Notes: generated by a model from the letters alone, not told the origin. A DNA stretch of 64,000 nucleotides from an uncultured Methanosarcinales archaeon (GCA_964455675.1 CAYVYK010000003.1:1-64000), one strand, 5' to 3'. Positions 38,928 through 62,372 are shown, counted from the first letter of the stretch. Program-made: numbers and translations.

Positions 38928-39000
38928 TGGGGCTGCTGGGATTCGAACCCAGATTGTAGCGTCCCGAACGCTAAGTGATACCAAGTTACACTACAGCCCC
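38928..39000 (-). tRNA. tRNA-Pro(CGG)
   Basis: GGGGCTG/CAGCCCC acceptor, TAGCG-TTCGGGA-CGCTA anticodon arm, TTCGAAT T-loop. Confidence 0.95.
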
Positions 39001-44031: not shown

Positions 44032-44137
44032 TGGAATTGATTCTTCTACCCTTATTCATCAGCTATATAAAGCTTTTATTATCTTATTATTATAAAAAAT
44101 GCGGTACGCGCACTCTCTACCTTCGATAATAAAAAAA

Positions 44138-44289
44138 TGGGGTCGCCGCGATTCGAACGCGGATCCGCTGGTCTCTTCCTTGAAGCGAAAGCCTCAACAG
44201 ACCATAGCATCAGTCATCGCCACAGCATTCTGTGGCTCAGCGCTCCATTACTGGAGCCAGCTATTCTAGCCAGGTTATACTACGACCCC
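44138..44289 (-). tRNA. tRNA-Trp(CCA) with 78-nt intron at 37/38
   Basis: GGGGTCG/CGACCCC acceptor, GCTGG/CCAGC anticodon stem, TTCGAAT T-loop; T-run terminator downstream. Confidence 0.95.
44173..44250 (-). ncRNA. Intron-encoded box C/D guide RNA predicted to target tRNA-Trp C34 and C39
   Basis: Guides TGGAGC-G-CTGA and TGGTCT-G-TTGA; the +5 rule lands on positions 34 and 39. Confidence 0.8.
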
Positions 44290-44358
44290 GCGCGAATATG
44301 ATACTTCCCGGACGATTTATAAAGGTTTTTGTCCATGTCGTCGTATTCACGGCGATCT

Positions 44359-62299: not shown

Positions 62300-62372
62300 A
62301 GCCTCCGGCGGGAGTTGCACCCGCGACCTCAGCCTTACCAAGGCTGCGCAATAGCTACTATGCTACGGAGGC
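62300..62372 (-). tRNA. tRNA-Thr(GGT)
   Basis: GCCTCCG/CGGAGGC acceptor, CAGCC-TTGGTAA-GGCTG anticodon arm; variant T-loop TGCAACT. Confidence 0.88.

Follow-up and report, generated by a model that had tools for sequence, protein, structure and literature searches.

How does a tRNA intron act as a methylation guide if its sequence elements do not stand in the customary order? For an intron that modifies the RNA hosting it, the guide inside the tRNA-Trp intron is the textbook example, and the dual guide of euryarchaeal pre-tRNA-Trp was reportedly described by Clouet d'Orval in 2001, Bortolin in 2003 and Singh in 2004. The DNA analysed here, a single stretch of 64,000 nucleotides (hereafter, the window), contains a tRNA-Trp gene for which a first-pass annotation made two proposals: (i) that the intron is a self-targeting C/D guide with permuted boxes, directed at positions 34 and 39, and (ii) that this guide is assembled or activated only by splicing and ligation. 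Comparative sequence analysis indicates that the intron is a real and conserved permuted variant, for which we infer a mechanism that differs from proposal (ii).

The tRNA-Trp(CCA) gene lies at positions 44138..44289 on the minus strand, to which all intron and exon features below also belong. ARAGORN, run with introns allowed, and the sequence itself place exon 1 at 44289-44251, a 78-nt intron at 44250-44173 (exactly the coordinates given by the first-pass annotation), and exon 2 at 44172-44138. The intron interrupts the gene at 37/38, beside the anticodon, and its removal leaves a mature tRNA of 74 nt that folds as a cloverleaf. The splice site may equally be placed 0–2 nt further 5', since AG ends exon 1 as well as the intron. 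Within the window, the gene was detected neither by default ARAGORN nor by Rfam at gathering scores; Rfam at E ≤ 10 on positions 44100-44320 returned two chance-level matches only, and no C/D family. A TATA-like sequence, TTTATAAA, is found at about 44316-44323 (minus strand), ~30 nt upstream of the first base of the tRNA, and a run of seven Ts (44131-44137) directly follows the last; TTTATAAA and the T run look like an archaeal TATA box and terminator, respectively. Three further tRNA genes in the window are intron-less: Met CAU (688-763), Pro CGG (38928-39000) and Thr GGU (62300-62372).

From exon 1 onwards, the intron reads UAA, UGGAGCG, CUGA, a 7-bp stem-loop, G-AUGACUG, 6 nt, UGGUCUG, UUGA, a hairpin and GGAAGAG, and then exon 2 begins. 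All motifs that had been claimed for it are present, in the order given. As a reference, one genome per prokaryote species was scanned with a canonical pattern (anticodon loop, 0–20 nt, RUGAUGA, 25–55 nt, UGGAGNN-CUGA). At least 120 loci matched, and at 90 of the 120 examined ARAGORN reports a tRNA-Trp with an intron. Among the matches listed, 80 titles comprise 64 archaeal entries (Methanosarcinales, Methanomicrobiales, Archaeoglobi, Thermoplasmata and others) and 16 bacterial chance matches. The 81 distinct introns among the matches listed give the canonical order: exon 1, 2–20 nt, C, guide 39 (GGGUCUG), D' (CUGA), a short loop, C' (UGAUGA), 5 nt, guide 34 (UGGAGCG), D (CUGA), a few nt and GA(A/G)GAG, followed by exon 2. 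As the set is defined by its search pattern, it shows this order to be widespread in Euryarchaeota, not universal there. The distance between C' and D in these introns is 12 nt.

The window intron holds much the same strings, differently placed. The string formed by guide 34 and box D (UGGAGCG-CUGA) is letter for letter that of the canonical introns, in which the heptamer UGGAGCG also directly precedes box D. The string formed by guide 39 and its box (GGUCUG-YUGA) is near-identical in the two layouts, with one difference at the start of the guide and one at the start of the box. What the window intron does not have is the linear succession C, D', C', D with ~12 nt spacing, nor a box C near the 5' splice site combined with guide 34 and box D near the 3' splice site; it runs instead guide, D, C, guide, D'-like and, as had been claimed, has no box C 5' of guide 34. 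Its box order is a circular permutation of the euryarchaeal one. The comparison of 81 canonical introns with the window intron and its relatives bears out the earlier statement that the boxes are permuted relative to introns of the characterised type.

The permuted arrangement extends well beyond the window. A permuted pattern (exon-CUCCAR, 2–12 nt, UGGAGNN-NUGA, 4–60 nt, AUGA) was matched in 248 of 401 genomes of the window's own order (180 of 281 when only good-quality genomes are counted), while the same pattern read backwards, as a control, was matched in two, and hence the arrangement is beyond chance. Seven of the 248 genomes (G315, G209, G182, G244, G207, G131 and G374) are unpublished; without them the count is 241 of 394, and no other claim depends on them. 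A pattern scan for the canonical layout in 121 genomes of the order gave none. In a phylum-level sample the permuted layout was found in 51/79 for the own order and in 3/22 for other orders of the same class. In most of 40 relatives, a BLAST search with the gene matched the 5' exon and the first ~14 intron bases. Sixty fetched loci were then parsed: 44 yielded an intron, of which 42 were distinct, and one misparsed locus (L017) was dropped, leaving 41 introns of 29 to 102 nt; the other 16 loci gave no parse. In several relatives (loci L011, L012, L013, L017, L019, L022 and L024) ARAGORN overlooked the tRNA-Trp gene because it has a second intron, located in the T arm. In all counts below, kin among the permuted introns are not independent, and the permuted and canonical sets, each defined by the patterns that found them, originate from separate phyla that differ in base composition. 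Conservation of the rotated tRNA-Trp guide extends over an entire order of archaea with small genomes.

The 5' half of the intron contains one guide and one complete pair of boxes. Guide 34 (UGGAGCG; 44241..44247) starts 3 nt past the 5' splice site and has the same seven letters in 31 of the 41 permuted introns. Its UGGAGC (44247-44242) forms six Watson-Crick pairs with G31 C32 U33 C34 C35 A36 of exon 1 (44252..44257), invariant in 9/9 clade members, and the fifth base upstream of CUGA faces C34 (44254), as the first-pass annotation had calculated. Box D (CUGA; 44237..44240) follows. Among the 41 introns this box reads ATGA (31), CTGA (8), TTGA (1) or GTGA (1), and the downstream bulge reads GAT (35) or AAT (6), with C-type heptamers that all start ATGA; NTGA at box D and NAT-GA at the bulge and box C were fixed by the search pattern and the parsing regex, and so these letters are no independent evidence. 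The NUGA at 44237..44240 is a D-type rather than a C-type box, because the preceding base is not kept as G in relatives. A reading of GAUGA before the hairpin of relatives as a 5' box C was rejected on the same grounds: the first G is unconserved (CUGA, AAUGA, UAUGA and GUAGA variants occur), NUGA is conserved.

Where a normal C/D RNA has its terminal stem, the window intron has a stem-loop, GCCACAG-AAUG-CUGUGGC (44219..44236). In 40/41 introns a stem of 2 bp or more adjoins the two boxes, and in 30/41 one of 3 bp or more, against 12.9% and 3.7%, respectively, in a shuffled-spacer control; 15 stem types are represented, and an alignment of nine sequences from the window's clade shows compensatory changes at three of the pairs. 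Directly after the stem come a GAU bulge and GA (44211..44218), making up box C, with the heptamer AUGACUG at 44217-44211. This box retains only the AUGA of the consensus RUGAUGA. CUGA, the 7-bp stem, the GAU bulge and GA have the geometry of a K-turn in linear RNA. Since D, hairpin and C are contiguous, a K-turn predicted to bind L7Ae should form in the unspliced precursor, and circularisation would therefore not be needed for assembly. The first-pass annotation had seen AGGAAGA, at the 3' end, as the sole C-like motif. As worded, this is not supported: the real box C sits right after the covarying hairpin past CUGA, within the block that had been left as GATGACTGA, and completes a K-turn in the linear RNA. 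The box missing from the window intron would then be C', not C.

The second guide lies further 3'. Guide 39 (UGGUCUG; 44198..44204) is antisense to the intron's own 3' junction: in the precursor it pairs with A(n-1) G(n)|A38 C39 C40 A41 (44174-44169), in the spliced tRNA with C35-A41, so that UGGUCU (44204-44199) lies in a 6-bp and a 7-bp duplex, respectively. The fifth base upstream of UUGA faces C39 and the pairing with AG|ACCA is as previously described. Antisense to the 3' junction is present in 20/41 introns, always 5–7 nt past the C heptamer, and it covaries both with the last two intron bases (AG/CU, AU/AU, AC/GU) and with position 41 (UA to CG). The following D'-like UUGA (44194..44197), which also supplies the first four bases of hairpin 2, is confined to the window's clade, where it is TTGA (7) or TAGA (2); at this place the other two-guide relatives have TCAG, TCGC, TGCT, ACTA, GGGC or AGTT. 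The spacing from C to D' is 13 nt in the window and 12–14 nt in relatives. Hairpin 2 itself (UUGAGGC-UUUC-GCUUCAA; 44180..44197) is paired in 98.4% of cells of the nine-sequence alignment, with one pair compensated (UA to AU). It contains GCUUCA (44181..44186), a look-alike of the anticodon-loop target, and overlaps the final element, AGGAAGA-G (44173..44180), the 3' strand of the bulge-helix-bulge (BHB) splicing motif. The placing of both antisense stretches at +5, the K-turn boxes and the order-wide conservation support the proposal that the intron is a C/D-type guide directed at positions 34 and 39 of its own tRNA.

The genome to which the window belongs, G000 (1.72 Mb, 99% complete), encodes the expected proteins. 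The genes for Nop5 and fibrillarin are adjacent and L7Ae is also present (all matches above Pfam cut-offs), as are RtcB and a 207-residue EndA reading frame. A lack of fibrillarin and Nop5 had been named in advance as an observation that would count against a guide; the genome search found both. A second, weaker L7Ae-family match is located at G000:C3:99037-99306 (39.5 bits, one in-frame TGA). A strict consensus scan of the genome for ordinary C-D'-C'-D sRNAs returned 0 matches (control, 0). Among public sequencing runs, none of RNA was listed as containing this DNA.

The arrangement of guide 34, D, hairpin and C recurs in two other tRNA genes of this genome: a tRNA-Leu(CAA) with a 40-nt intron (G000:C1:189844-189967), and an elongator-type tRNA-Met(CAU) with a 46-nt intron (G000:C20:1-121). 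In both, an antisense to the tRNA's own anticodon loop comes first, followed by AUGA or AAGA as the D-type box, and then by a GC hairpin and GAUGA, with C34 facing the +5 base. The same module stands alone in 29–47-nt tRNA-Trp introns of relatives. Its presence in the tRNA-Leu(CAA) and tRNA-Met introns argues that, in this organism, one closed K-turn plus a neighbouring cis guide makes up the working unit. tRNA-Trp, tRNA-Leu(CAA) and tRNA-Met are reported to carry guide-directed Cm34 in Pyrococcus. The shared module suggests that, in the archaea studied here, guides for wobble methylation are kept inside their target genes. The introns of tRNA-Cys GCA (G000:C1:121955-122066) and tRNA-Tyr GUA (G000:C2:2-128) show CUGA, a spacer and GAUGA, and so are K-turn-like, with no obvious antisense to position 34. 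In total, ARAGORN calls introns in 20 of the 44 tRNA genes of G000, some of which look doubtful.

In silico folding gives two competing structures. The naked pre-tRNA has its energy minimum (-68.1 kcal/mol) in a fold that combines the two cis guide duplexes with the K-turn hairpin and hairpin 2. With only the anticodon arm and intron considered, the guide fold has -37.9 kcal/mol, against -32.6 kcal/mol for the best one in which anticodon stem and central BHB helix are both retained. Enforcing the BHB leads GCUUCA to pair with guide 34, forming an inner helix that excludes hairpin 2, and sets GAAG (44178-44175) opposite C35-C32, where it pairs with C35, U33 and C32 and leaves C34 opposite A. 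The 3' splice site then falls in a standard bulge of 3 nt (A-G|A), and a 5x3 internal loop holds the 5' site. On this model, the window intron has a BHB motif that excludes the guide duplexes and is of the relaxed kind. An alternative BHB register (U33-C35 with n-4 to n-6) was rejected, as relatives with AUGAAGA have no G at n-6.

Both folds are conserved. In the nine-sequence alignment 97.4% of cells are paired for the guide fold and 91.9% for the splicing fold, compared with 33–54% when partners are slid by 1–3 columns. Compensatory changes fall in the K-turn stem, in hairpin 2 and between guide 39 and position 41; the inner helix of the splicing fold, with 96.3% of its cells paired, shows no double changes in these nine sequences. 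The earlier observation that GCUUCA(A) has rival partners—UGGAGC (6 bp) or UUGAGGC (7 bp)—stands, with both pairings conserved, and by the alignment and the in silico folds the proposed "switch" between them is also real and conserved. Mutually exclusive splicing and guide folds are said to have been described for Pyrococcus pre-tRNA-Trp by Bortolin in 2003; by analogy, the switch in the window would be their counterpart.

We consider it probable that the window intron is the self-targeting euryarchaeal tRNA-Trp methylation guide in a form whose modules are circularly permuted and which still addresses positions 34 and 39. A hairpin would have taken over from the terminal stem found in ordinary C/D RNAs, and the open ends would now lie where C' would otherwise be. 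Such an intron might work as follows: (i) the nascent pre-tRNA folds, with guide 34 pairing to G31-A36 only 3 nt away and guide 39 pairing to the junction of intron and exon 2, (ii) the K-turn is occupied by L7Ae, Nop5 and fibrillarin, which methylate C34, (iii) the RNA refolds, such that GCUUCA captures guide 34 and GAAG pairs within C32-C35 to give the relaxed BHB, and (iv) after cleavage by EndA, RtcB ligates the exons to each other and closes the intron into a circle. Methylation of C39 may be less efficient, or a weak second motif may assist it. The circular intron, which assembly would not require, could still act in trans. Proposal (ii), by which the guide depends on splicing and ligation for its assembly or activation, is not supported as worded: the lowest-energy fold of the unspliced RNA already has both cis duplexes, and the module stands alone in introns of 29–47 nt and in the tRNA-Leu(CAA) and tRNA-Met introns.

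Several observations count against the permuted-guide reading. The guide duplexes are short (6–7 bp), the window intron has no consensus C', the D'-like UUGA is clade-confined and doubles as a compensated hairpin arm, and box C keeps AUGA only. Efficient methylation by archaeal sRNPs is reported to require both motifs. Of a second, C'/D' motif the window has UUGA, but as part of hairpin 2, and AGGAAGA, which keeps both GA steps but is the BHB strand. The C34.A mismatch in the BHB helix is likewise left unexplained by this reading; it is explained by a rival in which the 3'-terminal heptamer has two uses.

According to this rival, A(G/U)GAAGA forms a strand of the BHB in the precursor and would act as box C' once the intron is excised and ligated; splicing and RtcB ligation would complete a C/D RNP with two K-turns (C', 11–12 nt, D), and the circle would be the main, trans-acting guide. 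We regard it as possible but doubtful. As first pointed out in the earlier annotation, AGGAAGA agrees with RUGAUGA at 5/7 positions and, once the intron ends are joined, precedes CUGA by 11 nt; the C/D K-turn forms independently of this joining. Joining the ends puts the heptamer 11 nt before box D in 21/41 introns and 12 nt before it in 9/41, close to the canonical C'-D distance. The base composition of the heptamer also differs between layouts. A is found at n-4 in 27/41 permuted introns versus 12/81 canonical ones, which mostly have GG at n-5/n-4; the A keeps a GA step at the cost of the C34.A mismatch, seen in 28/41 permuted introns, and the BHB helix is perfect in 1/41 permuted versus 66/81 canonical introns. 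Similarly, A occupies n-7 in 25/41 versus 3/81. A.GAAGA is matched by the heptamer of 16/20 two-guide introns versus 4/21 one-guide introns, counts that include nine close kin of the window, which weakens the association. In five of the parsed introns AUGAAGA is itself the box C of the K-turn; in the 29-nt intron of L185, it is box C, terminal heptamer and BHB strand at once. A circle-ordered, permuted, stand-alone C/D sRNA is reported, in the accessible part of the source, from Nanoarchaeum equitans (PMC3491384), and circular tRNA-Trp introns are likewise described as stable in Haloferax and Sulfolobus (PMC3326292).

On the other side, AGGAAGA can be accounted for by the BHB splicing motif, through its pairing within C32-C35. 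Canonical introns, with a normal C and C', end in GGAGAG (58/81) or GAAGAG (12/81), and therefore the motif predates any role as C' and is part of the ancestral splicing signal. Two-guide relatives with the best heptamer (AUGAAGA) lack a D'-type box after guide 39 to partner it, C and the putative C' would lie only a few bases apart in circles of one-guide introns, and the cis guide fold is already the lowest-energy state. In the two-guide loci L010, L173, L181, L183 and L184, CUGAUGAAGA or UUAUGAAGA immediately precedes the 3' splice site; in four of the five a consensus-like C-type box overlaps the BHB strand, and no D'-type box comes after guide 39. A fuller version of the dual-use rival puts the splice junction in the linker between C' and guide 34, so that splicing builds a two-K-turn RNP from a one-K-turn precursor, the lineage having fixed a circular permutation of the ancestral guide, plausibly by reinsertion of a circular intron or by boundary migration. 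We hold this, too, to be rather unlikely.

That the complementarities are structural only, the helices serving folding, quality control or splice-site definition and the K-turn binding L7Ae as a chaperone, with no guided methylation, is very improbable: the guide duplexes are indeed short, the second box pair is degenerate, the strict genome scan finds no ordinary C-D'-C'-D sRNA and, in the accessible part of the source, the Haloferax intron and its methylations are described as dispensable (PMC4090602), but in the tRNA-Trp, tRNA-Leu(CAA) and tRNA-Met introns of G000 C34 lies exactly opposite the fifth base 5' of a D-type box, the base facing C39 is at a fixed distance from box C in 20/20 two-guide introns, and fibrillarin and Nop5 are retained in a 1.7-Mb genome.

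If the permuted-guide reading is correct, a rotation that spans an order would mean that guide modules can be reordered without loss, and a minimal design of a single closed K-turn, with a guide on either side, may be workable. The permuted layout escapes Rfam and standard C/D finders. These introns offer a natural system for asking whether archaeal C/D RNPs need two protein-binding motifs, and whether circularising an intron serves a function. Were the dual use of the heptamer true, splicing and guide assembly would be mechanistically coupled.

Searches of the openly accessible literature, judged by listings and passages, yielded no apparent description of a permuted guide inside a tRNA-Trp intron; the nearest known systems are the following. 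The closest, as far as the accessible parts of the papers describe it, is the box C/D dual guide in the euryarchaeal pre-tRNA-Trp intron, known from Haloferax volcanii and Pyrococcus (via PMC4090602, PMC2584109 and PMC3326292), with intron guides from at least 29 archaea in the supplements of PMC2584109. It and the window intron share the gene, the intron position (37/38), the targets (34 and 39), the UGGAGCG-CUGA and GGUCUG-YUGA strings, and a BHB strand ending in GA(A/G)GAG. They differ in that, in the window, (i) the order is rotated and the C/D stem is closed by a loop rather than formed by the intron ends, (ii) guide 34 lies 3 nt from its target as opposed to about 50 nt, and its duplex falls wholly in exon 1, and (iii) there is no consensus C', D' is UUGA, and the BHB is relaxed (C34.A, 5x3 loop).

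Two RNAs of Nanoarchaeum equitans, both in the accessible part of PMC3491384, offer partial parallels. sRNA24 (Randau 2012) is a permuted, circular C/D sRNA that, so its authors argue, regains the conserved order only as a circle. As in the window, its genomic box order is circularly permuted and its host is a DPANN archaeon; unlike the window's order-wide intron layout, it is a stand-alone gene beside a split protein gene, is one case that its authors take for a recent rearrangement, and has no self-target. The 66-nt tRNA-Met intron of the same species, a DPANN tRNA intron too, houses a C/D-like RNA: besides box D it has a stable GC hairpin and a variant of box C. Compared by text and figure legend, it resembles the tRNA-Met intron of G000, which carries the module of guide 34, D, hairpin and C. 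Lastly, the tRNA-Trp intron of Sulfolobus solfataricus (Danan 2012, PMC3326292) is, according to the accessible part of that paper, a stable circle with two 7-bp complementarities, to positions 34 and 39, and without consensus C/D boxes; the window intron differs from it in having one clearly recognisable, conserved K-turn.
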